Origin: Clostridia bacterium
Lineage (GTDB): Bacteria > Bacillota > Clostridia > Christensenellales > Aristaeellaceae
Direction: 5' to 3'
NCBI GenBank assembly: GCA_017620115.1
Contig: JAFZRB010000053.1
Span: forward strand, 1 to 40,739
Length of the DNA: 40,739 bases
Shown here: positions 8,222 to 40,739 of the stretch, in pieces
Numbering within the stretch: position 1 is the stretch's first letter
Layout of the letters: the number at the start of each line of letters is the position of its first letter
Notes under the pieces: model-generated
Seen by the model: the letters and a program-made list of their open reading frames with translations, nothing else
Told to the model about the DNA's origin: nothing
Databases searched by the model: none
Program-made: the position numbers and the translations under genes

Positions 8222-8243
8222 GGTCTGTTGTCGAAACAGTCGG

Positions 8244-9602
8244 TCACTGGCGGTAGTGAATGCTGACGGCTCCCCCGTCGATCTCCACCCGTTCGATGAG
8301 CTCCCGCGCCACCACGCGCTTTTCCTCAGCCGTCATCCGGTCCCACGCCTGGGCGAGGCGGCGTATTTCCCCGCGCTGCCGCTCCGATTCTTCCTCGCGC
8401 CGTCCGGCCTGCAGCGCTTTGCGCTCCTCCTCGCGCAGCGTGTCCAGCAGGCGTTTCTGCTCGGCGATACTGTCCGCGAGAAGCTCGTCTTCAGCCGCGG
8501 CGTAAAGCGCGTACAAACGCCTGAGCCGCCGCTCTGTTTCGCGGATCCGGCCGGCAAGCGCGTCGCGCTCCGTTTCGCGCGGTCGATCGCCGGTCTCCGG
8601 CGGCTGGGAAAGCGCCCTGTCCAGAAAATCATCCACAACTGCGGCCTCCACTTCGTCCGCCCATGCCTTTTCGTTGTCGCAATTCTCGTCGCGGATGAGA
8701 TAGCGCTTGCTCCGCTGCTGGGAATAGCAGGTCAGTTTATAGCCGTTTCTCCCCCATTTCTGATAGCGCATCCTCGCGCCGCACCGGCCGCAGTACACAA
8801 GGCCCGTGAGCAGGTGAACGCTTTTGAAGCTGCGCGCGCTGCTGCGGCGGCTTTTTTGTTCCTGCGCCGCCAGAAACGTGGCCTCGTCCACGATCGCCTC
8901 GTGCCGCCCGCGGTATTCCGCGCCGTTATACTCGATCAGCCCGATATTCGACTTTCTGCTCAATATGTCTCTGACCTGCTTCTCATGCTTCAGGCCGGTC
9001 ATTTCGGCGATGCGCGCCGTCGGGACGCCGTCCAGGTACAGGCGGTATATGAGCCGCACGGTCGCCGCGTCTTCATTGGGCGTCAGCACGCCCCGCGCTC
9101 TGTCATAGTCGTAGCCAAAGGGCGGATGACCGCCGCCCATCCAAAGCCCGTCTCGCACGCGCTCCTTCATGCCCATGCGCGTGCGTTCGCGGATGGTCTC
9201 GCGCTCGAGCTGCGCGAACGCCGACATGATGCCCAGCATGGCCCGGCCCATCGGCGTGCCCGTGTCCATGTTTTCGTTGAGCGAGGTAAAGCCGACGCCG
9301 GCCGGATTGAACACGTCCTCGATGAGATACAGCGTGTCCTTCTGGCTGCGCGAGAGCCGGTCCAGCTTGTAAACGACCACCTGCGATATGAAACCGGCCT
9401 TCACATCGTCGATGAGGCGTTTCATTTCGGGCCGATCGATATTGCTGCCGGTAAAGCCGCCGTCGACGTAGAACCGGTAGTCCGTCCAGCCCCGGCTGCG
9501 GCAATAGCCTTCCAGCATATCTTTCTGGGCGTCCACGGAATAACCCTCAAACTGGGCGTCCGTCGATACGCGGATGTAAAGCGCCGCGAGTTTTTTCTTC
9601 AT
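8244..9602 (-). CDS. Large serine recombinase (SpoIVCA/phage-integrase-like; resolvase catalytic domain, recombinase domain, zinc ribbon, coiled coil)
   Basis: LAALYIRVSTDAQ (catalytic Ser motif), VVVYKLDRLSRS, GGHPPFGYDY, zinc ribbon LVYCGRCGARMRY...LTCY, and a Glu/Arg-rich coiled-coil tail. 452 aa. Confidence 0.95.
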   Translation of the reverse strand: MKKKLAALYIRVSTDAQFEGYSVDAQKDMLEGYCRSRGWTDYRFYVDGGFTGSNIDRPEMKRLIDDVKAGFISQVVVYKLDRLSRSQKDTLYLIEDVFNPAGVGFTSLNENMDTGTPMGRAMLGIMSAFAQLERETIRERTRMGMKERVRDGLWMGGGHPPFGYDYDRARGVLTPNEDAATVRLIYRLYLDGVPTARIAEMTGLKHEKQVRDILSRKSNIGLIEYNGAEYRGRHEAIVDEATFLAAQEQKSRRSSARSFKSVHLLTGLVYCGRCGARMRYQKWGRNGYKLTCYSQQRSKRYLIRDENCDNEKAWADEVEAAVVDDFLDRALSQPPETGDRPRETERDALAGRIRETERRLRRLYALYAAAEDELLADSIAEQKRLLDTLREEERKALQAGRREEESERQRGEIRRLAQAWDRMTAEEKRVVARELIERVEIDGGAVSIHYRQ

Positions 9603-9727
9603 TTGCGCCCTCTCCGCCGCACATTTTCAACCACCCGCGCGACCCGTTCCGATCTTAACGGCGTCGCGTTGATCTCCTCATGCCGGACCGGCCGCCCGGC
9701 CAGAAAACGCCTCGTTACGGTTATCAT
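9599..9727 (-). CDS. Hypothetical 42-aa basic protein translationally coupled to the recombinase (speculative)
   Basis: Not in the ORF track (under 60 aa). ATG at 9727 follows GGAGGTGA by 7 nt. Translation is MITVTRRFLAGRPVRHEEINATPLRSERVARVVENVRRRGRK. Its TGA overlaps the recombinase ATG (AAATGA). I recognise no homology. Confidence 0.3.
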   Translation of the reverse strand: MITVTRRFLAGRPVRHEEINATPLRSERVARVVENVRRRGRK

Positions 9728-9750
9728 ATGCCGGATCACCTCCATATCGT

Positions 9751-9778
9751 CATTTTTCCCGCTTTCCGGCGCTTATAC
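9751..9778 (-). promoter_or_regulatory. Candidate forespore (sigma-F-like) promoter upstream of the recombinase module (weak call)
   Basis: The minus strand reads GTATA (9778-9774), 14 nt, GGAAAAATG (9759-9751). The textbook sigma-F consensus is GCATR-15-GGHRARHTX. The -10 fits fully, but the spacer is 1 nt short and the -35 uses T for C. Confidence 0.2.
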
Positions 9779-9823
9779 GCTTATGGCTTCTTCTCCGCTG
9801 CCGCGAATTTAATTTTCGCATGC

Positions 9824-9852
9824 TTGACAACGCCGCCGCCGTAATATATAAT
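9824..9852 (+). promoter_or_regulatory. Consensus sigma-A promoter of the aspS leader
   Basis: TTGACA (9824-9829), exactly 17 nt, TATAAT (9847-9852). Confidence 0.75.
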
Positions 9853-9859
9853 GGCTGCA

Positions 9860-10078
9860 GTTTCATAACAGGCGCTGACGGGAAGAGTAGGTTTATGCCC
9901 CGGCTGTCCAGAGAGAGCCGCGTTCGCTGAGAGCGGCTCAGCGGCATCTTCCGAACGACACCCCCGAGCCTCCGTCCCATCGGACGGCGCGACGCATGCG
10001 ATATCATGCGCAGAGCAGCAAGCAGGGTGGCACCACGAACGGCTTTTCGTCCCTACGGGACAGAAGCCGTCTTTTTAT
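9860..10078 (+). promoter_or_regulatory. T-box riboswitch leader, Asp specifier (GAC), with intrinsic terminator
   Basis: Stem I elements are GGGAAGAGTAG and CCAGAGAGAG. The specifier-loop candidate is GAC followed by A at 9957-9960. The T-box sequence AGCAGGGTGGCACCACG lies at 10021-10037. The terminator ACGGCTTTTCGTCCC/GGGACAGAAGCCGT plus CTTTTTATT lies at 10039-10078. It sits directly upstream of aspS. Confidence 0.85.
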
Positions 10079-10141
10079 TGCCGCCCAGGCGTCCCTTATG
10101 AAGATGATCCATGCAACCCATACAGTCAGGAGGCGAAACCC

Positions 10142-11905
10142 ATGTTCCAATCCCGCACCCATACCTGCAATGAGCTACGCCTCTCCAACGCCGGCGAAAA
10201 GGTCACGATCGTCGGCTGGATGGAGAATGTTCGAGAGGTCGGATCGACGCTGGCCTTCGTCATCGTGCGCGACTTTTACGGCACCACGCAGGTGGTCGTC
10301 GAAAACAACGACGCGCTCATGGCCGTGGTGAAGGGGCTCAACTGCGAGTCCACCATCTCCGTGACAGGCACCGTGCGCGAGCGCAGCAGCAAGAACCCCA
10401 AACTGCCCACAGGCGACATCGAGATCGTGCCCGAGGCCATCGAGGTGCTGGGCCGCTGCATCTACAACGAGCTGCCCTTCGAGATCAACCGCTCCCGAGA
10501 GGCCGACGAGAACACCCGCCTGCGCTACCGTTACCTCGACCTGCGCAATCCCGAGGTCAAGGCCAAGATCGTTCTGCGCAGCCGGATCGTGGCTGAGCTG
10601 CGCCGCTCCATGACGGATCACGGCTTCCTCGAAATCACCACGCCCATCCTCACCAGCTCTTCGCCCGAAGGCGCGCGCGACTATCTCGTGCCTTCCCGCC
10701 TGCATCCGGGCAAGTTCTACGCGCTGCCGCAGGCCCCCCAGCAGTTCAAGCAGCTGCTCATGACCTCCGGCTTCGACCGCTACTTCCAGATCGCCCCCTG
10801 CTTCCGCGACGAGGACGCCCGCGCGGACCGCTCGCCCGGCGAGTTCTACCAGCTGGACATGGAGATGGCGTTCGCCTCGCAGGAGGATGTGTTCGCCGTG
10901 CTCGAAGACGTGCTGCCGCCCATCTTCGCCAAATACGGCAAATACGACCGCGCTTCCTCCGCGCCCTTCCGCCGCATCGCCTACAACGAGGCCATGGACC
11001 GCTACGGCTCCGACAAGCCCGACCTGCGCATCAGCCTCGTGGTCGACGACCTCACCGACCTCTGCCAGGGCGTCGGCTTCGAACCCTTCGAGGGCAACGT
11101 GGTGAAGGCCGTCGTCGCCCCGAACTTCGACAAAACGCGCAAGTTCATCGACGGCCTGTGCAAGGACGTCGAAACCGCCACCGCCAGCAAGGCTTACTGG
11201 TTCAAGGTCAACGAGGACGGCTCTTTCGCGGGCGGCATCGCGAAATTCCTGGCGGATAAAAACGCGGCTGTCACCGCGGCGCTTTCGCTCAAGCCCGGCT
11301 GCGCCGTGTTCCTCGCCGCCGGCAAGAAGACCGCCGCCCAGAAGACCGCCGGCGTCATCCGCAAGCTGCTGGGCAACGCCGTGGACGCCTACATGGACAG
11401 GGATAAATACGAATTCTGCTGGATCGTGGATTTCCCGATGTACGAAATCGGCGAGGAATCCGGCGAGCTGGAATTCTGCCACAACCCCTTCTCCATGCCC
11501 CAGGGCGGTCTGAAGGCGCTCACGGAAAAGGATCCGCTGGATATCTACGCCTGGCAGTACGATCTGGTCTGCAACGGCGTGGAGCTCTCCTCCGGCGCGG
11601 TGCGCAATCACGATCCCGAAATCATGATCAAGGCGTTTGAAATCGTCGGCCTGGGTGAGGCCGATGTGAAGGCCAAATTCCCGGCCATGTACAACGCCTT
11701 CTGCTACGGCGCGCCGCCGCACGCGGGCATCGCTCCCGGCGTCGACCGCATGGTCATGCTCATCGCGGGCGAAGAGAGCATCCGCGAGATCATTCCCTTC
11801 CCGATGAACAAGAACGCGCAGGATCTGATGATGGGCGCTCCTTCGGCGGTCGAGCCGAAGCAGCTCAGCGACGTTCACATCGCCATCGTGGAAGACAAAA
11901 AGTAA
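10142..11905 (+). CDS. aspS: Aspartate--tRNA ligase (bacterial type)
   Basis: 587 aa. Class II motifs FYALPQAPQQFKQLLM, QIAPCFRDEDARADRSPGEFYQLDME and GAPPHAGIAPGVDRMVML. RBS AGGAGG. Confidence 0.97.
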   Translation: MFQSRTHTCNELRLSNAGEKVTIVGWMENVREVGSTLAFVIVRDFYGTTQVVVENNDALMAVVKGLNCESTISVTGTVRERSSKNPKLPTGDIEIVPEAIEVLGRCIYNELPFEINRSREADENTRLRYRYLDLRNPEVKAKIVLRSRIVAELRRSMTDHGFLEITTPILTSSSPEGARDYLVPSRLHPGKFYALPQAPQQFKQLLMTSGFDRYFQIAPCFRDEDARADRSPGEFYQLDMEMAFASQEDVFAVLEDVLPPIFAKYGKYDRASSAPFRRIAYNEAMDRYGSDKPDLRISLVVDDLTDLCQGVGFEPFEGNVVKAVVAPNFDKTRKFIDGLCKDVETATASKAYWFKVNEDGSFAGGIAKFLADKNAAVTAALSLKPGCAVFLAAGKKTAAQKTAGVIRKLLGNAVDAYMDRDKYEFCWIVDFPMYEIGEESGELEFCHNPFSMPQGGLKALTEKDPLDIYAWQYDLVCNGVELSSGAVRNHDPEIMIKAFEIVGLGEADVKAKFPAMYNAFCYGAPPHAGIAPGVDRMVMLIAGEESIREIIPFPMNKNAQDLMMGAPSAVEPKQLSDVHIAIVEDKK

Positions 11906-11922
11906 AACGGCATGCCGCAATC

Positions 11923-11957
11923 GCCGCCTCCCGGCAATGGGAGGCGGCCGCTTTTTG
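11923..11957 (+). terminator. Rho-independent terminator of aspS
   Basis: GCCGCCTCCC (11923-11932), loop GGCAAT, GGGAGGCGGC (11939-11948), then CGCTTTTTG. Confidence 0.8.
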
Positions 11958-11977
11958 AGATTGACCGTCAAAATCTA

Positions 11978-12006
11978 TTGCATTGCGGCGGAAAATCCAG
12001 TATAAT
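11978..12006 (+). promoter_or_regulatory. Sigma-A promoter of the alpha-galactosidase cluster
   Basis: TTGCAT (11978-11983), 17 nt, TATAAT (12001-12006). Confidence 0.6.
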
Positions 12007-12047
12007 GAATATGTAAAATCCAATGGGAACAACGAGGAGGAATGAAC

Positions 12048-13229
12048 ATGCTGGCACAGAGACCGCCCATGGGCTGGAACACCTGGAACACCTTCGGCGA
12101 GAAGATCAACGAGCAGCTGATCCGCGAAAGCACGGACGCCTTCGTGGACATCGGCCTGAAAGACGCCGGATACGAGTACATCGTCATTGACGACTGCTGG
12201 AGCGAGTACAACCGCGATCCGGTCACCGACCGCATCGTGCCCCACCATGAGAAGTTCCCCAACGGCATGAAGGTCGTGGCGGACTACGTGCACTCCAAGG
12301 GGCTGAAATTCGGCATGTATTCCTGCGACGGCGTGCGTACCTGCGGCGACTACCCGGGCTCCTTCGACCACGAGTTTCTGGACGCGCAGACCTTCGCCGA
12401 ATTCGGCATAGACTTCCTGAAGTACGACAACTGCTATAAGCCGACCTCCGCTCACGGCCCCACGCTGTATCACCGCATGGGCATGGCGCTGCGCTCAACC
12501 GGCCGGGATATCCTCTTCTCCGCCTGCAACTGGGGCACCGAAGACGTGTGGAGCTGGATCCGTTCCTCCGGCGCGCACATGTACCGCTCCACCGGCGACA
12601 TCGTGGACACGCCGGAATCCTATCGCAACATCGCCAAGAGCCAGATGGACAAGCTGGGTTATTCCGCGCCCGGCTGCTTCAACGACATCGACATGCTGAC
12701 CGTCGGCATGTATGGCAACGGCAACGTGGGCAGCGACGTTTTCAATCCTGAAAAGAAGTCCAACGCCAACACCGAAGCCGACTACCGCAGCCAGTTCGCG
12801 CTGTGGTGCATGTATTCCGCGCCGCTGATGCTTGGCAGCGATATCCGCAAGATGGATGAGAAGACCCTGAAGCTGGTCACCAATCCCGAGCTCATCCGCA
12901 TCGATCAGGACGCCGAAGCCCGCCCGCCGGTGATCGCCAAAGCCGGCTGGTTCGAGGACTGCAAGGTCATGTTCAAGTTCCTGGAGAACGGCGAATACGC
13001 GCTGGCCTTCTTCAACATGGGCGAGCCGAATCCCCGCTTCCCCGAACGCAGCTCCCTCGGCCTCAGCGCCATGTTCGCCGATTTCGGCCTCACCGCCAGT
13101 TCCGGCTACGCCCTGCAGCTGACCGATGTGTTCACCGGCGAGGACGTGGGATGCTACAGGGAATACTTCCGGACGAACGTGGCCTTCCACGATTGCGCCG
13201 TCTACCGGGCCAGGCTGGTGAAGGCATGA
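12048..13229 (+). CDS. GH27-family alpha-galactosidase / alpha-N-acetylgalactosaminidase
   Basis: PPMGWNTWNTFGEKINE...GYEYIVIDDCW...KFGMYS...DFLKYDNC are GH27 hallmarks. The second ATG (12048) is better spaced from GAGGAGG than the track start at 12042. Confidence 0.9.
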   Translation: MLAQRPPMGWNTWNTFGEKINEQLIRESTDAFVDIGLKDAGYEYIVIDDCWSEYNRDPVTDRIVPHHEKFPNGMKVVADYVHSKGLKFGMYSCDGVRTCGDYPGSFDHEFLDAQTFAEFGIDFLKYDNCYKPTSAHGPTLYHRMGMALRSTGRDILFSACNWGTEDVWSWIRSSGAHMYRSTGDIVDTPESYRNIAKSQMDKLGYSAPGCFNDIDMLTVGMYGNGNVGSDVFNPEKKSNANTEADYRSQFALWCMYSAPLMLGSDIRKMDEKTLKLVTNPELIRIDQDAEARPPVIAKAGWFEDCKVMFKFLENGEYALAFFNMGEPNPRFPERSSLGLSAMFADFGLTASSGYALQLTDVFTGEDVGCYREYFRTNVAFHDCAVYRARLVKA

Positions 13230-13414
13230 CCTGCGCCAAATGCGGCAAGGCCATCTGCCACGACGAAGCGGGTCTTACCTGCAAGCTGATCAATCGCGGC
13301 GCGACCGAGTTCTTCTGCTTCGACTGCCTGGGCGAGATGTTCCACGCCAGCCGTGAGCAGCTGGAGGACATGATCCGCGCCTTCCGGGATGCGGGCTGCA
13401 CCCTGTTTCTGTAA
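13226..13414 (+). CDS. Small Cys-rich (zinc-ribbon-like) protein, 62 aa, function unknown
   Basis: MTCAKCGKAICHDEAGLTCKLINRGATEFFCFDCLGEMF... contains CxxC and CxxC motifs. Its ATG overlaps the GH27 stop (ATGA), and a strong terminator follows it. Confidence 0.55.
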   Translation: MTCAKCGKAICHDEAGLTCKLINRGATEFFCFDCLGEMFHASREQLEDMIRAFRDAGCTLFL

Positions 13415-13421
13415 TACCAAA

Positions 13422-13461
13422 CTGCCGCCGCCCGTCAAACGGCGGCGGCAGAATGCTTTTT
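13422..13461 (+). terminator. Rho-independent terminator
   Basis: CTGCCGCCGCC / GGCGGCGGCAG stem followed by AATGCTTTTT. Confidence 0.8.
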
Positions 13462-13497
13462 AATCAAATCACAAAACGAGCATGGAGGAGAACGATT

Positions 13498-14430
13498 ATG
13501 CTGATTGGCATCGATGTCGGCGGCACGAAAAACGAGCTGGTGCTGTGCGACAATTCCGGGCGCGTGCTCAACCGCCTGCTCGCGCCGGGCAGCAACGCCT
13601 CGGAGTTCGGCGCGGAGACGGCTTCGCAGCGCGTCGCCGGGCAGGTGAAGGAGCTGATGGCCGATTGCCCCGACGCGCCGGTCGACGCGATGTACGCCGG
13701 CATGGCCGGGGGCTGCGCGCCGCGGACGCGCGAATCCATTCACCGAATCCTGACGGAAACCCTGCCCGGCGTAAGGCGTATCGAAAACGGCAGCGACGCG
13801 CTGAACGGGCTGTACGCCTGTGTGGGCGCGCGCGACGGCATGGTTGTCATCGCCGGAACGGGCACGAGCGCCTTTGTGCGCCGCGGCGGCCGGCTGACGC
13901 AGGTGGGCGGCTGGGGTTACCTCATCGACGACGCGGGCGGCGGCTACGCGCTGGGCAGGGGCGTGCTCAACGCCGCCTATCGCGATTTCGACGGACGCGG
14001 CCCGCGCACCATGCTCACCGATATGGCCGTAAAAAGGATCGGCATGCCCCTCGACGAGGCGATCTCCCCGCTTTACGAGGGCGGCAAGCGCACGGTCGCG
14101 AGCTTCGCCCTGCTGGCCTTTGAGGCCGCGGATCTGGGCGACGAAACGGCGCTCTCGCTGGTCGACTGGACCTGCGGCGAACTCGCGCTGCTCATCGCCA
14201 CCTGCGCGAAGCACCTCGCGGCGGCGCCCTACCTCGTGGCGCTGTCGGGCAGCATATGGAAGTCCGACCGCGTGAGAAACGGCGTGAAAGCCAGGCTGGG
14301 CGGCGATTATCAGCTGCTCATCGCCGATCTGCCCCCGGTGTTCGGCGCGGCCGTCGCCGCCGCGGAGCTGGCGGGCCTGGACAGCGGCGAAGCGTTTCAC
14401 GACGCGTTCAAGGCCAGCTATCCGGCGTGA
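13498..14430 (+). CDS. BadF/BadG/BcrA/BcrD-type ATPase (N-acetylglucosamine kinase-like)
   Basis: MLIGIDVGGTKNELVL..., VIAGTGTSAFV and GGWGYLIDDAGGGYALG motifs. ATG at 13498 follows GGAGGAG; the track start at 13453 is over-extended. Confidence 0.85.
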   Translation: MLIGIDVGGTKNELVLCDNSGRVLNRLLAPGSNASEFGAETASQRVAGQVKELMADCPDAPVDAMYAGMAGGCAPRTRESIHRILTETLPGVRRIENGSDALNGLYACVGARDGMVVIAGTGTSAFVRRGGRLTQVGGWGYLIDDAGGGYALGRGVLNAAYRDFDGRGPRTMLTDMAVKRIGMPLDEAISPLYEGGKRTVASFALLAFEAADLGDETALSLVDWTCGELALLIATCAKHLAAAPYLVALSGSIWKSDRVRNGVKARLGGDYQLLIADLPPVFGAAVAAAELAGLDSGEAFHDAFKASYPA

Positions 14431-14450
14431 TTGGCGCAGGGAGGGATTAC

Positions 14451-15401
14451 ATGAATCGTTCAACCAGCCTGCTCATCCATCCGGAGGAACTGGATACCGT
14501 CTGGCTCGATCAGCTGGAGGCGCTGGGCGTGAAGACGCTCGGGCTGCATCCCGTGGGCGGGAAGCGCGCCAATGAAACGCTGGCGGCCATGCTGAACCGC
14601 TTTGAAACGCCCGAATACCGCCGTCTGCTGGACGAAGCGGAACGCCGCGGCATCGAAGTCACCTGCGAGATGCACGCCCTGCGCTATCTCCTGCCCGCGG
14701 ACGCGCTGGCGGCGCATCCCCAATGGCGGCGCGTGAACGCTCAGGGCGAGCGCGCGGCGGACTGGAACCTGTGTCCTTCCTGCGGCGAAGCGCTCGACTA
14801 TCTCAGCGAAAGCGCCGCGCGGCTGTACGCCCGCCTTCCGGGCCGTCCGAAGCGCGTTTCACTCTGGCTGGACGACTCGCAGGACGCCTTCTGCCACTGC
14901 GATAAGTGCCGTTCCCTCTCCCCTTCCGACCAGCAGATGATCGTACTGAACGCGATGCTGAGGGGTATCCGCGCCGTGCGGCCCGACGCGAAGCTGGCCT
15001 ATCTGGCTTACTTTGAAACGCTGCCCGCGCCGACGCGGCCCGACCTGCGGGATGGGCTCTATCTCGAATTCGCGCCGTACAAGCGCGACCTGACGCGTCC
15101 GCTGGACGACCCCGACTGCGAGGCCAACCGGAGGGAAACGGAGCACCTTCGATCGCTGCTCGCCTTCTTCGGCGCGGAGGATGCCACCGCGCTGGATTAC
15201 TGGTTCGACAACTCGCTGCTTTCGCGTTACACGAAGCCCCCGCAAAGGCTCGTTCCGCATCCCGGCGTGGTAAAGGCCGACATGGCTTTCTACCGTCGGC
15301 TGGGCTTCGAGCGCATATCCTCTTTCGCCTGTTACCTGGGCGCGGACTACCGGGCGCTGTACGGCCTGCCGAAGCTGGATTCTTTCGCCGAAGGAGCGTG
15401 A
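14451..15401 (+). CDS. Hypothetical protein, possibly a glycosidase-like TIM-barrel (DUF4838-like), with a Cys cluster
   Basis: ATG at 14451 follows GGGAGGG. It has CPSCGE and WLDDSQDAFCHCDKC motifs. The family assignment is from memory and is weak; the coding call rests on operon context and length. Confidence 0.6.
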   Translation: MNRSTSLLIHPEELDTVWLDQLEALGVKTLGLHPVGGKRANETLAAMLNRFETPEYRRLLDEAERRGIEVTCEMHALRYLLPADALAAHPQWRRVNAQGERAADWNLCPSCGEALDYLSESAARLYARLPGRPKRVSLWLDDSQDAFCHCDKCRSLSPSDQQMIVLNAMLRGIRAVRPDAKLAYLAYFETLPAPTRPDLRDGLYLEFAPYKRDLTRPLDDPDCEANRRETEHLRSLLAFFGAEDATALDYWFDNSLLSRYTKPPQRLVPHPGVVKADMAFYRRLGFERISSFACYLGADYRALYGLPKLDSFAEGA

Positions 15402-15405
15402 CGCC

Positions 15406-16044: not shown

Positions 16045-16050
16045 GAAAAC

Positions 16051-16073: not shown

Positions 16074-16083
16074 GCTTTCCGTA

Positions 16084-27529: not shown

Positions 27530-27772
27530 AGAACAAGACCTCTTTTCATCGCCGCGTTTCCATTTGGTTTGACGTATATAATTCGACAAAGTTCATCATT
27601 GTCCTTTTTCATACATGTAAAAAGAAGGCGAACGCGCAAACGCCGCCGGAAACGCCGTAATGCCGGGGAAGTCTGCGCGCCCGTTTCTTTTTTTCATGCA
27701 AAACCGTATAATCGCCGCGCATTCGGTCCATGCTTGGCTTATAGGAATTCCTGTCAAATAGGAGGCAGAACT

Positions 27773-28318
27773 GTGAAAAGACGTCGAATTCTCGCGTGGC
27801 TGGCGCTGACAGCGGCCGGAATGCTGCTGAACATGCCGAAAACCCTCTCCGATACCCCCTGCAACGCCTATATCCGCCTGCATGTAGCAGCCAACAGCGA
27901 CAGCGCGTGGGATCAGGGCGTGAAGCTGGCCGTGCGCGACGCCGTGCGCGCGGAGGCCGCGGCCCTGCTGGCCGGCTGCGAAACAACGGAGGATGCCTGG
28001 CCGCTGCTGCAGGACAGCGCAGGCCAGATCGAAGAAGCGGCCCGCGCCGCGCTGCTCGAATGGGATCCGGACTGCGCGGCGTCCGTCTCAGCCGGCGTGT
28101 ATCCGTTTCCAGAGCGGGTTTATGACGGCGTGACGCTGCCCGCGGGCGAGTACCGGGCGATTCGCGTTTCGCTTGGCAAAGGAGAGGGCAAAAACTGGTG
28201 GTGCGTGCTGTTCCCTTCGCTTTGCCTGCCCGCGGGCGGCGACGGCGGGGAAACGGTCGTGTTTTACTCCGCCCTGGGCCGCTGGCTCGCGGGGCTGTTC
28301 GGGAGGGATGCCGCATGA
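27773..28318 (+). CDS. spoIIR: Stage II sporulation protein R
   Basis: GTG at 27773 lies 7 nt after GGAGG. IRLHVAANSDSAWDQGVKLAVRDAV...LPAGEYRAIRVSLGKGEGKNWWCVLFPSLC matches the SpoIIR signature. It is embedded in a longer artefactual track ORF (26972-28318). Confidence 0.9.
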   Translation: MKRRRILAWLALTAAGMLLNMPKTLSDTPCNAYIRLHVAANSDSAWDQGVKLAVRDAVRAEAAALLAGCETTEDAWPLLQDSAGQIEEAARAALLEWDPDCAASVSAGVYPFPERVYDGVTLPAGEYRAIRVSLGKGEGKNWWCVLFPSLCLPAGGDGGETVVFYSALGRWLAGLFGRDAA

Positions 28319-32871: not shown

Positions 32872-32894
32872 CAAACTGCGTCTGGAAGGGGTTC

Positions 32895-33557: not shown

Positions 33558-33648
33558 CCGATCATCCCCTTTCTGGGGAGAGCGTATCACATACCGCGCC
33601 GCGCATCAAGCCGTTCCGCTCCAAAACCGCCTTTTCGCGTCTGAATTG

Positions 33649-34470
33649 TCAGCCGTCTATCTTCGCCATGAGCCATGCGGCCAGCGCGCCGGCGGCAAAG
33701 GGGATGAGGTATACAAGGCTTCTCCATGCCAGCGCCACATGGGGCAGGGATGAAATCATCGAGCCGATCATCAGCCCGATCACAAGGCAGTATGTGGGGC
33801 CGGGGTACTTCTTGATGAGCATCCGCATGAGACCGATCAGCGACACCGCCGCGATCAGCGCGCCCAGGCCCGCCCACAGCAGCAGCCCGACGTTCAGCGT
33901 CGTGAGCGCGGCCATCATCGGGCCGTACCAGCCCAGCCTGAACAGGATGAACGAGGTGGAAAACCCCGGCAGGATGGACCCCGCCGTGAGGATCGCGCCG
34001 GTGACGGCCGATTGCAGCGGCCCAACCGCCGCCTCCGCCGCGCCGCCGGGCTCACGTTCGACGAGCAGCAGCAGAAGGCTCAGCGCCAGTCCCGCCGCCG
34101 TCGCGATGAAATGCCTTCTCTTCAGGCCGCCGCTGGCCGCCTTCGCTTCGCGGACGAGCGCCGGCATGGAGCCCGCGATCAGCCCGCAGAACAGGAAAAT
34201 CAGCGGCGTTTCGTATTTGACCATCACGCGGTTGAGGATGACCGCCACGCCGTACAGCCCGACGAGGCTGCCCAGTCCTACGGGCAGCAGCAACCTGAGA
34301 TTCTCCTCCACGTTTTTGAAAAAGGTGGCGACGGCGTCCAGGATCGGGCCGTACAGGCCGAAAGCCACGGCCAGCACGCTGCCGCTCACGCCGGGCAGTA
34401 TGCCGCCCACGCCGATCATCGCGCCCGCCAGGAAGCGCTTTATATAGTGTTCGATCACGCTTTTGTCCAT
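33649..34470 (-). CDS. DUF368-family membrane protein (PopT-like polyprenyl-phosphate transporter family)
   Basis: GGILPGVSGSVLAVAFGLY and a second ILPGFSTSFIL repeat are characteristic of DUF368. ATG at 34470; the track start is over-extended. Confidence 0.8.
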   Translation of the reverse strand: MDKSVIEHYIKRFLAGAMIGVGGILPGVSGSVLAVAFGLYGPILDAVATFFKNVEENLRLLLPVGLGSLVGLYGVAVILNRVMVKYETPLIFLFCGLIAGSMPALVREAKAASGGLKRRHFIATAAGLALSLLLLLVEREPGGAAEAAVGPLQSAVTGAILTAGSILPGFSTSFILFRLGWYGPMMAALTTLNVGLLLWAGLGALIAAVSLIGLMRMLIKKYPGPTYCLVIGLMIGSMISSLPHVALAWRSLVYLIPFAAGALAAWLMAKIDG

Positions 34471-34580
34471 GCTTTTCCCCGTTCTTCCCGTTTGTTTCCC
34501 GCCTCCCATTATAAAAGGCGCCGCCGGGAATGTCAACGGATCTCAGACTGTTCTCATGATGATCTTCGGGAATGATAAAG

Positions 34581-34598
34581 TTTGTGCAATTTGTGCAT
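34581..34598 (+). repeat. Tandem direct 9-mer TTTGTGCAA/TTTGTGCAT in the promoter region of the oxidoreductase gene
   Basis: tttgtgcaa (34581-34589) is followed directly by tttgtgcat (34590-34598), about 20 nt upstream of TGCTATAGT, an extended -10 candidate. Confidence 0.4.
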
Positions 34599-34664
34599 TT
34601 CAAAAACGCGCCGCTTCTGCTATAGTAGACGTGGAAACAAAACGTGTGAAAGGGTGACATACCA

Positions 34665-35954
34665 ATGGCAGGCAAGGTTAAAATCGGCGTATTCGGCGCG
34701 TACCGCGGCATGACGATGATCAACGTTCTCCTGAGGCACCCCGACGCGGAACTGGTCGCCATCTGCGACAAGTACCGTCCCGCGCTGGAGAAAGCGGGCA
34801 AGGCCGCCGAGGAGGCGGGTCTGCAGCTGGCGCTGTATGAGAATTTCGAGGATTTCTTCCGGCACGACATGGACGCCGTGGTGCTGGCCAACTACGCCAA
34901 CGAGCACGCTACCTTCGCCATCCGGCTGCTCAGGAGCGGGCGGCACGTGCTCAGCGAGGTGCTGCCCTGCGAAACCATGGCGCAGGCCGTCGAGCTCATC
35001 GAAGCTGTCGAAGAGAGCGGCAAGGTATACGCCTACGCCGAGAACTACTGCTATATGTGGCACACGTTCGAGATGCGCGAGCGTTACGAGCGCGGCGAGA
35101 TCGGCGAAGTGATGTATGCCGAAGGCGAATACATCCACGACTGCTCCGCCATCTGGCCCGGCATCACCTACGGCGAAAAGGATCACTGGCGCAACAATAT
35201 GTTCCCCACATTCTACTGCACGCACTCCATCGGCCCGATGCTCTCCATCACCGGCCGCCGGCCCGTCCAGGTGGTCGGCTTCGTGACGCAGCGCAACGGC
35301 ACCGTGCGCCCGCTGGGGCTCAAGAGCGGGGAGTGCGCGGGCATCGAGCTGGTGACGCTGGACAACGGCGCCATCTGCAAGAGCGTGCACGGCCACCTCA
35401 AGCGCGAACCGGGCAGCATCAATTATGAGATCTACGGCACCAAGGGTTCGATGGAGTCCGAGCGCTTCACGCCCAGCTACGCGCCGGAAGGCCGGGAGCC
35501 CGAGCTGCAGGTCTATCGCGAAGGCGACAAGCTGTGCGTCGGCGAGACCGAGCGCTACCGGCCCGGCACGCCCGCCATCGCCGGCGATATGGCGAAGAAG
35601 TTCACCACCCACGGGGGCAGCGACTTCTACCCCACCCACTTCTTCATCGAGAAGATCCTCGGGAATCCCGACGGCGAGAAATACTCCATCGACGTGTATT
35701 CGGCCGTGGACATGGGCATCTGCGGCATACTGGCCTATCGCTCCATCCTGGCGGGCAACGCGCCCATGCGCGTGCCCAACCTGCGCGACAAGGCGGAGCG
35801 CGACGCCTGGCGCTGCGACAACAAGTGCACCAACCCAGCCGTGGCCCAGGGCGACGACCTGCTCCCCTGCTATCCGGGCGGCAGCATGGAGTATCCCGAC
35901 AGCGTATACGACGAGGTTCGGAAAATCTGGCTCTCCGGCAAGAACGCGGAATAA
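34665..35954 (+). CDS. Gfo/Idh/MocA-family NAD(P)-dependent oxidoreductase
   Basis: VKIGVFGAYRGMT Rossmann start and family-typical length (429 aa), including EGEYIHD. Confidence 0.9.
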   Translation: MAGKVKIGVFGAYRGMTMINVLLRHPDAELVAICDKYRPALEKAGKAAEEAGLQLALYENFEDFFRHDMDAVVLANYANEHATFAIRLLRSGRHVLSEVLPCETMAQAVELIEAVEESGKVYAYAENYCYMWHTFEMRERYERGEIGEVMYAEGEYIHDCSAIWPGITYGEKDHWRNNMFPTFYCTHSIGPMLSITGRRPVQVVGFVTQRNGTVRPLGLKSGECAGIELVTLDNGAICKSVHGHLKREPGSINYEIYGTKGSMESERFTPSYAPEGREPELQVYREGDKLCVGETERYRPGTPAIAGDMAKKFTTHGGSDFYPTHFFIEKILGNPDGEKYSIDVYSAVDMGICGILAYRSILAGNAPMRVPNLRDKAERDAWRCDNKCTNPAVAQGDDLLPCYPGGSMEYPDSVYDEVRKIWLSGKNAE

Positions 35955-35967
35955 CCCGGAACAGGCG

Positions 35968-36005
35968 GCGGGCGCGCATGACTCTCAGATGCCATGCGCG
36001 CCCGC
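35968..36005. terminator. Bidirectional hairpin terminator
   Basis: Perfect 13-bp stem GCGGGCGCGCATG (35968-35980) / CATGCGCGCCCGC (35993-36005), followed by TGTTTC. Confidence 0.75.
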
Positions 36006-36031
36006 TGTTTCAAATGAATTCGTCCGCCGGC

Positions 36032-36517
36032 TCAAACATCCGCCCGATCGTCCGAACGAAATACGCCGGGCTTCCTCTCTCCCGCGCGGCGCAGGCCGCG
36101 CGTCGTGGCCGTGACCACCGCGACCGCCAGCGCGATACCCGCGGAGATCAGCACGGTTTCCACGCCGATCTGCGCGGCTTGATCGTATTCCTCAAGCACC
36201 AGCGACAGCATCGTGCGGTACAGGCCCGCGCCGGGCACCAGCGGCACGATGCCGATCATCGAGAAGATGATCGCCGGAGCCTTCTTGCGCCGCGCCAGCC
36301 ATTCCGACATAAGCGCCACGACCAGCGCGCCGATGAAGCTCGCCCCCACCGTGGAGTTTATCAGCGCCATGCCCGCCAGGTAGCCCGCGTAGCCGGCCAG
36401 TCCCGTAAGCGCGGCGCCCAAAAGACAGTGCCGGGGCGTGTGGAACAGCAGCGCAAAGCACACGCACGCGCCAAAGCTCCCCACGAGGCCCTTCAGAACG
36501 CCGATCACATCAGCCAT
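36032..36517 (-). CDS. Threonine/serine exporter family protein, small subunit (DUF3815)
   Basis: Four-TM hydrophobic protein. ATG at 36517 follows GGGAGGTG and overlaps the upstream gene by 13 nt. This is the classic DUF1212/DUF3815 pair. Confidence 0.8.
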   Translation of the reverse strand: MADVIGVLKGLVGSFGACVCFALLFHTPRHCLLGAALTGLAGYAGYLAGMALINSTVGASFIGALVVALMSEWLARRKKAPAIIFSMIGIVPLVPGAGLYRTMLSLVLEEYDQAAQIGVETVLISAGIALAVAVVTATTRGLRRAGERKPGVFRSDDRADV

Positions 36518-37281
36518 GTCGCCGCACCTCCCAGGCGAAGGTAGCACCACATGGCGACGCCCGCGCCGCCGGCCAGCACCACGGCGCGCATCACCGCGTC
36601 GGTTATGCGCGCGCCGCCGGACACCATGTCGCCGCGCATGGAATCGCGGATGCCGTTGGTAAACGCCAGGCCAGGCAGCTGCGGCATCATGATCGACCAG
36701 ACGATCAGGCTTACGTTGCCCCGGCCGCAGACAGAGGCCGCGACGAGCGCCAGCGCCGCCGCGAGAAATCCGCCCAGAAGGCAGCCCAGCGGCACGCCGC
36801 CCTGATCGGGCACGAAGATCAGCAGCGCCTGTATCGCCGCGCTGACCAGCCCGGCCACGAGAAACTCAAACCATCCGCCCCCGAACATCACGGCGAACAT
36901 GGCCGCCGAGCCGCCGGCCGCCAGCACGCTGCCCCAGCCGCCGGGCGTCTTTGCGTCGCGAATCTTCTCCAGCCGCTTTGCGCCTTCGTCCAGATCGATG
37001 CTGTGCGCGGTCAGCGCGCGTGAGACCGCGTTTACCGCCTCCAGCTTGCTGAGATCCACCGTCCGGCGGCTGATCCTGGCGATGGAAGACGCGCTCTCTC
37101 CCCCTTTGGCCACCGTCATGGTGAGCCCGGTGGGCAGCGCTATGATATCCATATTGCAGCCGAACGCCTGGCCGATGCGCCCGGCCGTCTCCTCGGCGCG
37201 GTAGGTTTCGCCACCGTTTTCGAGAATCAGGCTGGCGGCCAGCTGCGCCGCAAAAATCACCCGCTGTATGTCTGTCGTCAT
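36505..37281 (-). CDS. Threonine/serine exporter family protein, large subunit (ThrE/DUF1212)
   Basis: LILENGGETYRAEET motif, typical of DUF1212 ThrE-family proteins. Confidence 0.85.
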   Translation of the reverse strand: MTTDIQRVIFAAQLAASLILENGGETYRAEETAGRIGQAFGCNMDIIALPTGLTMTVAKGGESASSIARISRRTVDLSKLEAVNAVSRALTAHSIDLDEGAKRLEKIRDAKTPGGWGSVLAAGGSAAMFAVMFGGGWFEFLVAGLVSAAIQALLIFVPDQGGVPLGCLLGGFLAAALALVAASVCGRGNVSLIVWSIMMPQLPGLAFTNGIRDSMRGDMVSGGARITDAVMRAVVLAGGAGVAMWCYLRLGGAATWLM

Positions 37282-37461
37282 CCGCTCATCCCCCTGCTGA
37301 TATTATAGCGTTCTTTTTCATTCCGTCAAGTTCCGTCCGGAAAAAAGGAAGCGGCGCGGCACCGGCCGAGGGATAAAAAAGCGCTTCCCTTTTTAACCGG
37401 AGTGCGCTATACTGATGATGAAGGTTTCCGCCGGATTATTCCATCAGTCGAGGTTGTTCCC

Positions 37462-38790
37462 ATGCAGGATATGTTCTCAGAAAACGCGCGGTCACAGGCC
37501 CCGCTGGCCGACCGGATGCGCCCCAGGACGCTGTCCGAATTCATCGGGCAGAGGCACATCGTGGGCGAAGGCCGGCTGCTGCGCCGCGCCATAGAGGCCG
37601 ACCGCCTCACCAGCTCTATCTTCTTCGGCCCGCCGGGCACAGGCAAGACCACGCTGGCCTCCATCATCGCCGAAACCACGTCGGCCGCCTTCATCCGCAT
37701 GAACGCCGTCACCAGCGGCGTGGGCGAGGTGCGAGAGGCCCTGAAGGAAGCCGAGAGCCGGCTGCGGCTGTACGGCAAGGCCACTTATCTGCTGCTTGAC
37801 GAGTGCCACCGCTGGTCGAAATCGCAGTCCGATTCCATCCTGCCCGCCATCGAGCAGGGCATCGTGCGCTTCATCGGCTCGACCACCGAAAACCCGATGG
37901 TGGCCATGACGCCGGCCATCGTGAGCCGCTGCCGGCTGTTCCAGTTCGAGGCGCTTTCACAGGCCGATGTGGAGACCGCCGTGCTGCGCGCCATCAAGGA
38001 CGAGGAGCGCGGCTACGGCAAGCAGCGCGTAACCATCGACGACGACGCGCTGCATCATATCGCGCAGGTGGCGGGCGGCGACGTGCGCAGCGCCCTCAAC
38101 GCGCTGGAGCTGGCCGTGCTCACCACGCCGGTGGACGCGGACGGCGGCATTCACATCACCCGCGAGATTGCCGAGGAGTCCATCCAGAAGCGCGTGCTGC
38201 GCTGCGACGAGTCCATGTATTACGACATGCTCAGCGCCTTCTGCAAATCGCTGCGCGGCTCCGACAGCGACGCCGCGCTGGCTTGGTTCGCGCGCATGAA
38301 CTACGCCGGGGTGGATCCGCGCATCATCGTCAGGCGCGTGATCGCCCACGCCAGCGAGGACGTAGGCCTCGCGAACCCCACCGCCATGCTGCAGGCCGTC
38401 GCCGCGGCGCAGGCGCTGGAGTTCAACGGCATGCCGGAAGCCCGGCTGTCCATCGCGCAGGCCATCATCGCCGTGTGCGAGAGTCCGAAATCGAACAGCG
38501 TCGTCATGGCCATCGACCGCGCCGCGGCGGACGCCGAGAAGGGCGGCTTCCAGCCCGTGCCCGTCCATCTCAGGGATACCTCCTACGCCGGCTATGAGAA
38601 GATCGGCTCGGGCGTGGGCTATAAATACCCCCACGATTATCCCGGCCACTGGGTGAAGCAGCAGTACGCGCCGCTGGAGGCGCGCGGCATGCCCTACTAC
38701 GTGCCCAGCGATCAGGGCCAGGAAGAAAAGCTGCGCGAGCGGCGCAGGGCGCGGGGCATTGACGACGCAAACCCGACAAAGGAGACTTGA
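37462..38790 (+). CDS. rarA: Replication-associated recombination protein A (AAA+ ATPase)
   Basis: PLADRMRPRTLSEFIGQ, Walker A GPPGTGKTT, LLDECHRWSK, and the MgsA C-terminal domain YYDMLSAFCKSLRGSD...YKYPHDY. Confidence 0.95.
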   Translation: MQDMFSENARSQAPLADRMRPRTLSEFIGQRHIVGEGRLLRRAIEADRLTSSIFFGPPGTGKTTLASIIAETTSAAFIRMNAVTSGVGEVREALKEAESRLRLYGKATYLLLDECHRWSKSQSDSILPAIEQGIVRFIGSTTENPMVAMTPAIVSRCRLFQFEALSQADVETAVLRAIKDEERGYGKQRVTIDDDALHHIAQVAGGDVRSALNALELAVLTTPVDADGGIHITREIAEESIQKRVLRCDESMYYDMLSAFCKSLRGSDSDAALAWFARMNYAGVDPRIIVRRVIAHASEDVGLANPTAMLQAVAAAQALEFNGMPEARLSIAQAIIAVCESPKSNSVVMAIDRAAADAEKGGFQPVPVHLRDTSYAGYEKIGSGVGYKYPHDYPGHWVKQQYAPLEARGMPYYVPSDQGQEEKLRERRRARGIDDANPTKET

Positions 38791-38792
38791 TC

Positions 38793-39611
38793 GTGGATAA
38801 GCCGAAAAAACAGCGCGCCGACGTGGCGCTGGTGGAGCGCGGCCTGGCGGAGAGTCGCGAGAAGGCGCAGGCGCTCATCATGGCGGGGCTGGTGTATATC
38901 GCCGAGGAGAAGGTGCTGAAGCCCTCCGAAGCCGTGAAGGCCGAAGACGACCTCACCGTGCGCGGCGCGGCGCACCCGTATGTGTCGCGCGGCGGCCTCA
39001 AGCTGGAGAAAGCGCTGCGGGTGTTCAACTATGACCCGGCGGGCGTCGTCGCCATGGATCTGGGCGCGTCCACCGGCGGCTTTACCGACGTGCTGCTCCG
39101 GAACGGCGCGGCGCATGTGTACGCCGTCGACGTGGGATTCGGCCAGCTCGACTGGCGCATCAGGGGCGACGCGCGCGTGACCGTGATGGAACGCACCAAC
39201 GCCCGCTCGATCACGGCGGACATGTTCGATCCCGTTCCCACGCTGGGCGTGATGGACGTGTCGTTCATCTCGATCAGGCTGATCCTTCCCGCGGCGTTTG
39301 AGATCCTCGGATCAAGCGGCCGGTTCATCTCGCTCATCAAGCCGCAGTTCGAGGCCGGGCGGGAGCGCGTGGGCAAAAAGGGCGTGGTGAGCGACCCGGA
39401 AACGCATGCGGACGTGGTCGAGTCCATCGTGCGCTTTGTGCCTTCTCTGGGCTGGAAAACCCGTGCCGTCGACTTCTCGCCCATCACCGGGCCGGAGGGC
39501 AACATCGAGTTCCTGGCCGATTTTCTGCCCGCGGAAAAGGTCGAAGGCGAGATCACGCGCGGAGATATCGAGGCCATGGTGAAAGCCGCGCACGAGGCGC
39601 ACAGGAAGTGA
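38793..39611 (+). CDS. tlyA: TlyA-family rRNA 2'-O-methyltransferase (hemolysin A family)
   Basis: S4-like RADVALVERGLAESREKAQALIMAG followed by the FtsJ-like DLGASTGGFTDVLL. GTG at 38793 lies 7 nt after AAGGAGA; the track's TTG at 38787 is too close to the RBS. Confidence 0.9.
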   Translation: MDKPKKQRADVALVERGLAESREKAQALIMAGLVYIAEEKVLKPSEAVKAEDDLTVRGAAHPYVSRGGLKLEKALRVFNYDPAGVVAMDLGASTGGFTDVLLRNGAAHVYAVDVGFGQLDWRIRGDARVTVMERTNARSITADMFDPVPTLGVMDVSFISIRLILPAAFEILGSSGRFISLIKPQFEAGRERVGKKGVVSDPETHADVVESIVRFVPSLGWKTRAVDFSPITGPEGNIEFLADFLPAEKVEGEITRGDIEAMVKAAHEAHRK

Positions 39612-39624
39612 GGGGGGAGATTCC

Positions 39625-40739
39625 ATGGCTGTCACGCTGGGAAAGCGGACGGCGGAAAACGTCGCCGTGTCTTTTGAGAAAACGCAGGCCGAACAGATCC
39701 GGCTTTTCCTGCCGCAGGAGGCAAAATCGCTCGACGAGGCGCTGGCGAAATACCGCGCGTCGCTGCTGCCCGGCGCGACCAGCTTCGGTCGCACGATTCT
39801 GAGCGACGGACGCCATGTGGGCGACGTTTGGTGCTACGGCATCGACGAGAGCGGCAATCCGCAGGCCATGGTGAGCTACTGCGTGTTTGACGCGGACTGC
39901 TGGAATCAGGGCATCGCCACGGAGGCGCTGCGTCTGTTCCTCGACGAGATTCGGGAGCGCTTCGATCTCCATGCGTTCGGCGCGTTTACCTGCGCGGACA
40001 ACACGGCCTCGCGCCGCGTGCTCGAGAAAAACGGCTTTACGATGATAAAACGCTTTGTGGAGGACGGGACGGAGTCCTGTTATTATGAGCGCGATTTCAG
40101 GCGGGAAAACGACAGGCTCGAGGAGATGAGCGCATTCTTCACCGCCCGCCTGGACGGCTATGACGAGCACATGCTGAAGGATGTGGGCGGCTGCCGCGAA
40201 TGCTATGAGGAAATGGCGCGCCTTGTTCCGGAAAGCGCGGAAGCCCTGCTCGATCTGGGCTGCGGTACGGGGCTGGAGCTAGATTTCATCTTTCCCCGCT
40301 TCCCCGCTCTCCGCGTGACGGGCGTAGACCTGACGCAGGCCATGCTGGACGAGCTGCGCCGCAAACACCCGGACAAGGCGCTGGATCTCGTCTGCGGCAG
40401 CTATTTCGACGTGGACTTCGGAAAAACCGCATTCGACGCGGCGATTTCCTTCCAGACCATGCACCATTTTGCGGCGGAGATGAAGCGCAGCCTGTACGAG
40501 CGCGTAAAGAAGGCGCTGAAACCGGGCGGCGTTTACATCGAATGCGACTATATGATCGAGGACGACGCCGAGGAGGCGCTCTATTTCGCGGAGCTTGACA
40601 GGATGCGCCGCGAGCAGGGGCTTTCGCCGGACAAGTTCGTGCACTACGACACGCCCCTCACCATCGCGCACCAGACAGCGGTGTTGAAAGAGGCTGGATT
40701 TGCGTCCGTCGAAAAGAAGCTGCGCGTGGAAAACACGAC
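39625..40739 (+). CDS. GNAT N-acetyltransferase fused to a class I SAM-dependent methyltransferase (3' end beyond the window)
   Basis: Absent from the ORF track because there is no stop codon in the window. I translated 371 codons by hand with no stop. The N-terminal half has GNAT-like motifs (WNQGIATEALRLFLDEI...NTASRRVLEKNGF). The C-terminal half has methyltransferase motif I LLDLGCGTGLE and the post-I motif VTGVDLTQAML. Confidence 0.75.
   Translation, partial: MAVTLGKRTAENVAVSFEKTQAEQIRLFLPQEAKSLDEALAKYRASLLPGATSFGRTILSDGRHVGDVWCYGIDESGNPQAMVSYCVFDADCWNQGIATEALRLFLDEIRERFDLHAFGAFTCADNTASRRVLEKNGFTMIKRFVEDGTESCYYERDFRRENDRLEEMSAFFTARLDGYDEHMLKDVGGCRECYEEMARLVPESAEALLDLGCGTGLELDFIFPRFPALRVTGVDLTQAMLDELRRKHPDKALDLVCGSYFDVDFGKTAFDAAISFQTMHHFAAEMKRSLYERVKKALKPGGVYIECDYMIEDDAEEALYFAELDRMRREQGLSPDKFVHYDTPLTIAHQTAVLKEAGFASVEKKLRVENT

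Follow-up and report, generated by a model that had tools for sequence, protein, structure and literature searches.

Published rearrangements of sporulation genes, including those of a survey of 180 Firmicute genomes, interrupt mother-cell genes only, and the accepted view is that only a terminal cell can afford genome cutting (PMC4191935). In two such systems the serine integrase alone integrates the DNA and the integrase plus a small factor excises it: SprA/SprB, SprB having 58 amino acids (aa) (PMC5499854), and CD1231/CD1234 (PMC5025042). The sigma factor gene sigG is forespore-specific (PMC3789822), and no report of an interrupted sigG was found in the full-text literature. We analyzed a sigG gene of this kind in a stretch of 40,739 bp (hereafter the window), which is the entire contig JAFZRB010000053.1 of a metagenome-assembled genome (MAG) of a Clostridia bacterium at NCBI (GCA_017620115.1). 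The evidence consists of MAGs and metagenome contigs throughout. Only the last 163 codons of sigG are present in the window, at 7727-8218 on the minus strand, and the gene of a large serine integrase stops 25 bases upstream of the ATG of this fragment. We read the window as one end (attR) of a domesticated serine-integrase switch which keeps sigG split in the growing cell, with a probability of about 55 %.

The sigG 3' fragment and its integrase module

The elements of the junction, all on the minus strand, are the following (a slash marks the break in sigG).

7727-8218 (-), sigG 3' fragment, 163 aa, matching positions 92-254 of the 254 of TIGR02850 (E 5e-74), beginning ...A/MPMIAGEIRRYL
8209-8215 (-), core CCAATGA, common to the junction alignments of the window's 3' junction and of the relatives' 5' junctions
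8216-8243 (-), attP-derived half-site (P arm), from the integrase stop to the core, containing TTTCGACA (8229-8236)
8244-9602 (-), large serine integrase of TP901-1/A118 type, 452 aa, catalytic serine read from the sequence in ...YIRVSTDAQ
9599-9727 (-), small open reading frame (ORF), 42 aa, MITVTRRFLAGRPVRHEEINATPLRSERVARVVENVRRRGRK, its stop overlapping the integrase ATG (ATGA), GGAGG 10 nt upstream
9751-9778 (-), forespore (sigma-F-type) promoter-like motif GTATA-N13-GGGAAAAATG, ahead of the small ORF and the integrase

The fragment corresponds to sigG codons about 96-258. With equivalog models it scores higher as SigG (249 bits) than as SigF (178 bits), and it lies below the full-length cutoff of TIGR02850 (249 vs 457 bits) because only positions 92-254 are present. 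A tblastn search with three intact SigG proteins, each cut to about its first 105 residues, detected no 5' half on either strand of the 40.7 kb, the overlap at the junction excepted. The absence of this half, noticed earlier from the sequence alone, is hence confirmed together with the partial profile match: in the genome of the window the 5' half is neither within 32.5 kb on the integrase side nor within 7.7 kb on the other side. Other sporulation genes are intact in the window (spoIIR, sleB, ypeB and ymxH).

A protein identical to the window integrase carries resolvase, recombinase and zinc-ribbon domains (PF00239, PF07508 and PF13408), and the integrase matches the integrase family phrog_95 (9e-119). 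The nearest solved structures in the PDB are the catalytic domain of the TP901-1 integrase (4e-34) and the C-terminal domain of the A118 integrase (2e-12, residues 138-450). The match to the XisF model (4e-36) covers the N-terminal catalytic domain only (residues 9-167) and is well under the family cutoff. Judged by its sequence, the protein has the features of the large serine integrases: a catalytic domain, recombinase and zinc-ribbon domains, and dyad att sites. Its GC content at third codon positions (GC3) is 0.80, which is host-like.

The small ORF has orthologues of 39-42 aa at the equivalent position in L006, L017, L018, L020, L022, L024, L023/25 and L158-167 (L numbers are our labels for loci), and a peptide resembling it is also present in the phage-type element L002. 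No family of Pfam, NCBIfam or PHROG was matched by the 42-aa ORF. In size and position it resembles small directionality factors such as SprB, and by this analogy it may be a candidate for that role. The promoter-like motif was defined as G[ACT]ATA-N13-15-GGNNANAHTR, which we take to be the sigma-F-type consensus of the B. subtilis literature. It has a single match on the two strands of the window, for 0.055 expected with a first-order Markov model. In L006-9, L018-20, L022 and L158-167 the pattern recurs ~145 nt ahead of the integrase start, and each of L158-167 has a single hit in ~20 kb. The homology between the window and L018 starts exactly at the -35 of the motif, so that the conserved unit is 8216-9778, about 1.6 kb. 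In minus-strand order the minimal module comprises the sigma-F-type promoter motif, the 42-aa ORF, the integrase and a 25-nt attP half-site, followed by the 3' part of sigG.

Two further integrases, 65% identical to that of the window, were found at L023:423-1772 and L025:10001-11350, with the same pyrR flank (described below) and a homologous 39-aa upstream ORF; neither sigG nor a recognisable half-site follows them. They may be trans-acting copies or have another target. The module composed of pyrR, small ORF and integrase can therefore stand unlinked from sigG.

Recombination sites and conservation of the split

In relatives, the 5' half of sigG (about 97 codons) lies directly after spoIIGA-sigE and is followed by a mirror-image half-site. 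The SigG profile is covered at positions 92-254 in the window and 1-99 in L011, and the breakpoint is identical across species. The B arm and the B' arm, once joined, read ...FSTYAVPMIIGEIRRYL in frame; the predicted attB junction is ...TTTTTCGACGTACGCNGTGCC/AATGATCGCCGGCGAAAT... and the predicted attP junction ...TTTCGACAACAGACCGCCATGCC/AATGAAGGTCTGCTGTCGAAA.... A P arm is kept beside every orthologous integrase stop. That of the window is TTTCGACAACAGACCGCCAT, followed by the core GCCAATGA; the 5' halves of relatives read ...GTGCCAATGA, then the mirror-image arm, which in L070 (P' arm) is AAGGTCTGCTGTCGAAA, with TTTCGACAGCAGACCTT as reverse complement. A complete attP could be rebuilt from ERZ28573850 scaffold_384 (130,197 bp, hereafter scaffold_384), on which a 3' fragment (protein entry P0258) and a 5' fragment (P0136) are both present. 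It forms a dyad, GATGTTCAT-CCCA-ATGAACATC, whose centre makes CC the probable crossover; in the window the crossover dinucleotide is probably the CC at 8214-8215, in Val-Pro codons.

The P arms were compared with the reverse complements of P' arms, with the following numbers of identical positions.

P arm of the window's clade with P' of L070/L156: 14-18 of 22
P arm of the window's clade with P' of L011/L014: 11-15 of 22
P arm of L072 with P' of its own partner L014: 17 of 22
P arm of L072 with P' of L070/L156: 11-14 of 22

The P arm of the window itself matches L070/L156 at 14-17 of 22 positions and another clade at 12-13, and the two arms of scaffold_384 match at 17 of 22. As far as these alignments indicate, the P and P' arms are inverted repeats which co-vary by clade, as expected if one integrase dimer binds both. 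By this co-variation, the 5' partner of the window's clade is the group of 128-aa fragments (L070, L156 and L157). In this group the layout is Mnh operon (-), spoIIGA, sigE and sigG 5' half, then, past the junction, a major facilitator superfamily (MFS) gene, darA, holB and yaaT.

Two observations concern the sites themselves. In L010-L016 (e.g. L011:10311-10340) a perfect forespore promoter pattern lies directly after the 5' junction and reads into a 422-aa protein (L011:10386-11654) with several E..H motifs, which belongs to no Pfam, NCBIfam or PHROG family and which, from these motifs, may be a di-iron, ferritin-like protein. P0015, a SigG-like protein of 267 aa, contains a 78-residue tandem duplication starting exactly at YAVPMII, the recombination site; this duplication may be an assembly artefact or a recombination product.

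The junction between integrase and sigG 3' fragment is also present in L001, an independent metagenome contig. An abundant related species has it, identical, in ten independent assemblies (L158-L167), and so do about a dozen more species (rumen and gut MAGs); the loci with this junction (L001, L006-9, L017-22, L076-77 and L158-167) come from different samples and assemblers. An assembly or binning chimera joining unrelated DNA at 8219 had been listed among the explanations, and the window is indeed a MAG contig. The recurrence of the junction in all these loci, and the fact that the homology break falls exactly at the promoter of the module, lead us to reject it as practically negligible. Among the best 120 protein clusters, about 50 are fragments of 161-175 aa with the same starting residue, and the nearest intact SigG is 76% identical to the fragment of the window. 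N-terminal fragments of at least 96 aa (many of 99 or 128), ending ...FSTYAVP(M), are equally numerous.

Between orthologues, the pairwise ratios of nonsynonymous to synonymous substitution rates (dN/dS) are low, 0.06-0.20 (3' half of sigG), 0.02-0.11 (5' half) and 0.09-0.23 (integrase), with dS of 0.25-1.6 where estimable and some distant pairs saturated. No frameshift was found in either half or in the integrase across dozens of species. Both halves of sigG and the integrase are under purifying selection, and the divergence arose in the split state because all the lineages compared are split. These results bear on a further explanation put forward earlier, that the locus is a non-functional remnant: an old rearrangement would have broken sigG, sporulation would have been lost, and the fragment and integrase would be decaying. 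The rejoined form was not observed and the genomes are all from uncultured MAGs, two points in favour of a remnant. The low dN/dS (0.02-0.23) with intact reading frames, the conserved and co-varying half-sites and the intact spoIIR, sleB, ypeB and ymxH make a dead fragment very improbable, and we discard it.

Equally little credit is given to a two-piece sigma factor, whose fragments would be translated separately and assemble on RNA polymerase without any DNA rearrangement. B. subtilis SigO-RsoA is a two-subunit sigma factor, most 3' fragments have an ATG start, and the clade of scaffold_384 is without adjacent integrase, all of which suit this explanation. It is contradicted by the position of the break, inside the region 2.4 helix (YAVP/MIIGEIRRYL), by the lack of a ribosome-binding site before the 3' fragment of the window and by the replacement of ATG by ATT or ACT in several clades; it also leaves the dyad half-sites and the integrase unexplained.

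The neighbourhoods of the closest intact SigG genes (P0024, P0025 and P0040) are rearranged and provide no clean ancestral reference. In L069:3684-10783 (intact sigG, P0040) a block of ymxH, nrdR, response regulator, histidine kinase and aldo-keto reductase is inverted and located upstream of spoIIGA-sigE-sigG. In L067 and L068 the closest intact SigG genes are not beside sigE; around sigG, this group shows an unusual degree of rearrangement. At L056:10001-11899 the gene directly behind a relative of the integrase (42% identity) is a truncated sigF, which matches TIGR02885 from position 67 and is interrupted at the homologous VP/MI position. It would be a second split forespore sigma gene; the scaffold is labelled Bacteroides fragilis and its binning is doubtful. 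Finally, among the collection blocks with one or the other half of sigG, taken by longest contig, roughly one-third to one-half are under 2 kb (58 of 169 for P0130 and 55 of 113 for P0335). Coexistence of the two arrangements in the samples may be what interrupts assemblies at the junction.

Relative position of the two halves and proposed switch

Scaffold_384 is the only case where the geometry of the two halves is resolved.

62,175-62,672 (+), sigG 3' half
100,175-100,474 (+), sigG 5' half

The two sites form direct repeats separated by 37.5 kb, the 3' half preceding the 5' half. The order is ABC transporter, P arm, junction, sigG 3' half, sfsA, ahpC, ymxH, nrdR, response regulator, histidine kinase, aldo-keto reductase, then up to tyrS; further on come murD, ftsW, murA, ftsQ, ftsA, ftsZ, spoIIGA, sigE, sigG 5' half, junction, P' arm and a gene of 421 aa. 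The DNA between the halves, read up to 72.7 kb and again from 90.2 kb, consists of host genes (nrdR, the cell-division (dcw) cluster, ftsZ and sigE). The loci of scaffold_384 are without runs of N, and each junction is backed by more contigs (L015-16 and L073-75). Rejoining on this scaffold would release a circle of ~38 kb with sigG intact behind sigE, and attP would stay on the chromosome. Since the 3' half comes first on scaffold_384, the missing 5' half of the window may lie beyond its left end rather than its right end, the right flank being outside DNA by this analogy; there is no need to expect it to the right of the recombinase, as the sequence-only reading did. The same reading had suggested an element larger than 32 kb carrying housekeeping genes. 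Its topology comes closest to what is seen, and its framing is off, as the intervening DNA on scaffold_384 is the own neighbourhood of sigG with the 3' half first. Its view that this is not an ordinary skin-like element is borne out by the host genes beside the integrase and between the halves of scaffold_384.

The switch that we propose would work as follows. Early in the forespore, sigma-F RNA polymerase would make the integrase and the small protein, the latter perhaps acting as directionality factor. The integrase would pair both junctions, cut at the CC of the CCAATGA core and rejoin them, and this recombination of attL with attR would give an in-frame sigG (attB) plus attP. The rejoined sigG would be transcribed to yield sigma-G. 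Once the spore has germinated, recombination of attB with attP by the integrase without its partner would split sigG again; enzymes of this type work in that direction by default (PMC5499854, PMC5025042). Direct repeats would resolve the chromosome into two circles, which a spore that neither divides nor replicates its DNA could hold; on a circular chromosome a layout of the scaffold_384 type would have the same topology as a very large 'element'. In its complete form this is a programmed reversible germline rearrangement, in which a sigma-F-controlled domesticated integrase rejoins sigG in the forespore and at least one lineage cuts out a ~38-kb circle (sigG, sigE, ftsZ and dcw genes) re-pasted at germination. 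We advance this complete form tentatively, well short of even odds.

For the genome of the window the main rival is an inversion switch, with the halves in opposite orientation, e.g. on opposite replication arms, and an integrase that flips the segment without any loss. Such a switch is lossless and would be the safest for a germline chromosome. The skin integrase inverts DNA in E. coli when attP is inverted (PMC5025042), and essential genes adjoin the integrase in several lineages (aspS here, dnaE in L054). Decomposition of the GC3 skew gave a replication term of -0.07 (plus strand), equal on both sides of the junction, and the sign of the raw skew was unchanged across every junction examined, which indicates that the split arrangement is the long-term replicating state. 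Both halves and all four flanks are thus co-oriented with replication, which fits opposite arms equally, as GC skew does not distinguish direct sites on the same replication arm from inverted sites on opposite arms. On the other side, the sole resolved relative has direct repeats, with both halves on the plus strand, and does not support the inversion that had been proposed; asnB on the P side is moreover common to scaffold_384 and the window's clade, which suggests from gene order a common ancestral layout. We regard the inversion switch as unlikely here.

Several points weigh against the integrase switch that we prefer. No integrase adjoins either site of scaffold_384, where it must act in trans or be absent. 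The excised circle would contain ftsZ and the dcw genes with no replication origin, so that near-perfect reintegration would be required. Neither a rejoined (attB) nor an attP molecule was observed, the best 120 clusters contain no intact SigG more than 76% identical to the fragment, and a second, intact sigG may exist elsewhere in the genome. The sigma-F-type promoter is called by a consensus match only, and in calibration no matching sigma-F motif was found upstream of spoIIR in the window. As to distance, one contig of the abundant related species extends 156 kb to the side of the integrase and 75 kb to the opposite side, and no 5'-fragment entry, among those listed, was placed on it; the halves may be far apart in this species, as this weakly suggests. 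The flank gene order of L070 and L006 also fits a 5' half on the integrase side. The L070 and L006 flanks are collinear with the origin-proximal gene order of B. subtilis, which hints without being decisive that the opposite arc is short. Stitching by synteny via PGI (L024) or gapdh (L002 vs L067) gave no consistent path.

Chromosomal flanks, phage origin and described systems

The distribution of the other elements in the window is as follows.

116-6764 (-), response regulator and histidine kinase (PhoP/PhoR-like pair), aldo-keto reductase, nagB-like, ctsR and mcsB, following nrdR
6836-7312 (-), nrdR (NCBIfam), conserved downstream neighbour of sigG
7388-7657 (-), ymxH (NCBIfam), conserved downstream neighbour of sigG
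9779-40739 (no strand), host flank on the integrase side: aspS leader and gene, then about 28 ordinary genes
9824-9852, sigma-A promoter, 12/12 consensus match
9866-10057, Asp T-box, E 2e-16, 75.2 bits, specifier GAC
10142-11905, aspS, profile match
27743-28318, spoIIR, profile match

On the left, the synteny of the ymxH-nrdR side is common to the window, L006, L017-21 and L158-167. A forespore promoter pattern with one mismatch, GAATA-N15-AGGAAAAATG, is present at 2259-2288 (-), ~120 nt upstream of ctsR. On the right, the sigma-A promoter, Asp T-box and aspS described earlier beside the module are all recovered. The T-box was missed by the Rfam scan at gathering threshold and seen in E-value mode; it is under the gathering score of RF00230 (75.2 vs 93) though all 219 model positions align. 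The aspS leader would thus work like a T-box, its formal Rfam membership being borderline. Further genes to the right encode alpha-galactosidase, MatE, pyridoxamine kinase, an aminotransferase, an amino-acid ABC transporter, glpK, a pdaB-like deacetylase, spoIIR, sleB, ypeB, a radical-SAM protein, ThrE, rarA and tlyA. Genes for a capsid, a terminase, conjugation or a second integrase were not found in these right-hand 32 kb, and GC per kb is uniform across the window (0.54-0.68), so the first impression of a right flank of uniform composition devoid of mobile cargo was correct. Most members of the clade have pyrR(-), uraA(-), asnB(-) on the integrase side, with ispDF, yabO, hbs, mazG and spoVT farther out. 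The flanks of the window (aspS and following) and of L017 differ from this arrangement, which makes the right 32 kb of the window a lineage-specific juxtaposition of ordinary chromosome. No other assembly showed the joint between integrase and aspS; the L001 contig reaches only some 160 bp upstream of the integrase start.

True prophages occupy the same sigG site in other lineages (L057, with terminase and minor capsid protein; L059 and L002, phage-like), and free phage relatives have a palindromic attP directly after the integrase gene. A phage integrase is thus the ancestor of the module. Flanks of housekeeping genes have appeared on more than one occasion (dnaE in L054, DAHP synthase in L027). 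Viral contigs scanned with the L002 integrase gave no match; scanned with the window and L057 integrases, they gave phage relatives, none of them adjoining sigG. In a scan of JGI metagenomes with a chimera of integrase and N-fragment, intact sigG of other taxa dominated the matches listed and one useful locus, L077, was obtained. Sister integrases (about 51-53% identity; L028, L031, L035, L037-L043, L046 and L066) are located at prophage ends. At L038:8373-11329, the locus of this group whose ORFs were read, the integrase lies by a terminase, and the insertion is not in sigG but upstream of prmA and of a gene for a small ATPase-like protein.

The rearrangements described to date (sigK, spsM, spoVFB, spoVR and gerE) all concern the mother cell. 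A conserved split of the forespore gene sigG breaks this rule and implies reversible cut-and-paste, or inversion, in the germline. The delay of sigma-G after sigma-F is a long-standing question, to which DNA rejoining would give a concrete answer in these bacteria. In practice, annotation pipelines call the split sigG a fragment or a pseudogene in many gut and rumen MAGs, and trait prediction would wrongly score abundant Clostridia as non-sporulating. The natural integrase/att pairs with clade-specific arms are also possible orthogonal recombination tools.

The closest likeness is with skin in sigK (SpoIVCA in B. subtilis, CD1231 in C. difficile), where a sporulation sigma gene is likewise split in its coding region and rejoined in frame, and where a large serine recombinase gene is likewise directly upstream of the 3' fragment, the usual skin layout according to Galperin et al. 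In C. difficile skin the small accessory protein CD1234 sets the direction, which recalls the 42-aa ORF. Of the features of skin-like elements, the window has the precise in-frame split; it has neither a discrete foreign element nor a mother-cell-specific target. sigK acts in the mother cell, which dies, and its excision is not inherited, whereas sigG acts in the forespore germline. The window module has no element cargo, and on scaffold_384 the intervening DNA is dcw-ftsZ-sigE with the 3' half first. Skin also has a sigma-E/SpoIIID-dependent promoter, whereas the motif of the window is of forespore type.

SPbeta, which interrupts spsM, is 134 kb long. As in the module proposed here, a serine integrase (SprA) has a very small partner (SprB), the sporulation promoter of sprB times the rejoining, attP is highly symmetric and the integrase alone reintegrates (PMC5499854). 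SPbeta differs in being an active phage, excised only in the mother cell (PMC4191935), and in that sprB lies across attP from sprA, whereas the small ORF of the window is upstream of the integrase and co-transcribed with it; the small ORF has no detectable sequence similarity with SprB. The gin element in gerE of B. cereus ATCC 10987 likewise has no phage genes and uses serine recombinases for a rearrangement during sporulation (PMC5595907). Unlike the present module, it interrupts a mother-cell gene as a discrete foreign element of 28.6 kb, which encodes three recombinases. Active lysogeny, e.g. that of the Listeria comK prophage, provides an example of reversible excision and reintegration of DNA interrupting a host gene; there a whole phage is concerned, and neither a spore germline nor an arc of host genes. 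In the fdxN element of heterocysts, XisF is a large serine recombinase acting in development; heterocysts are terminal, and again no spore germline and no arc of host genes are involved.

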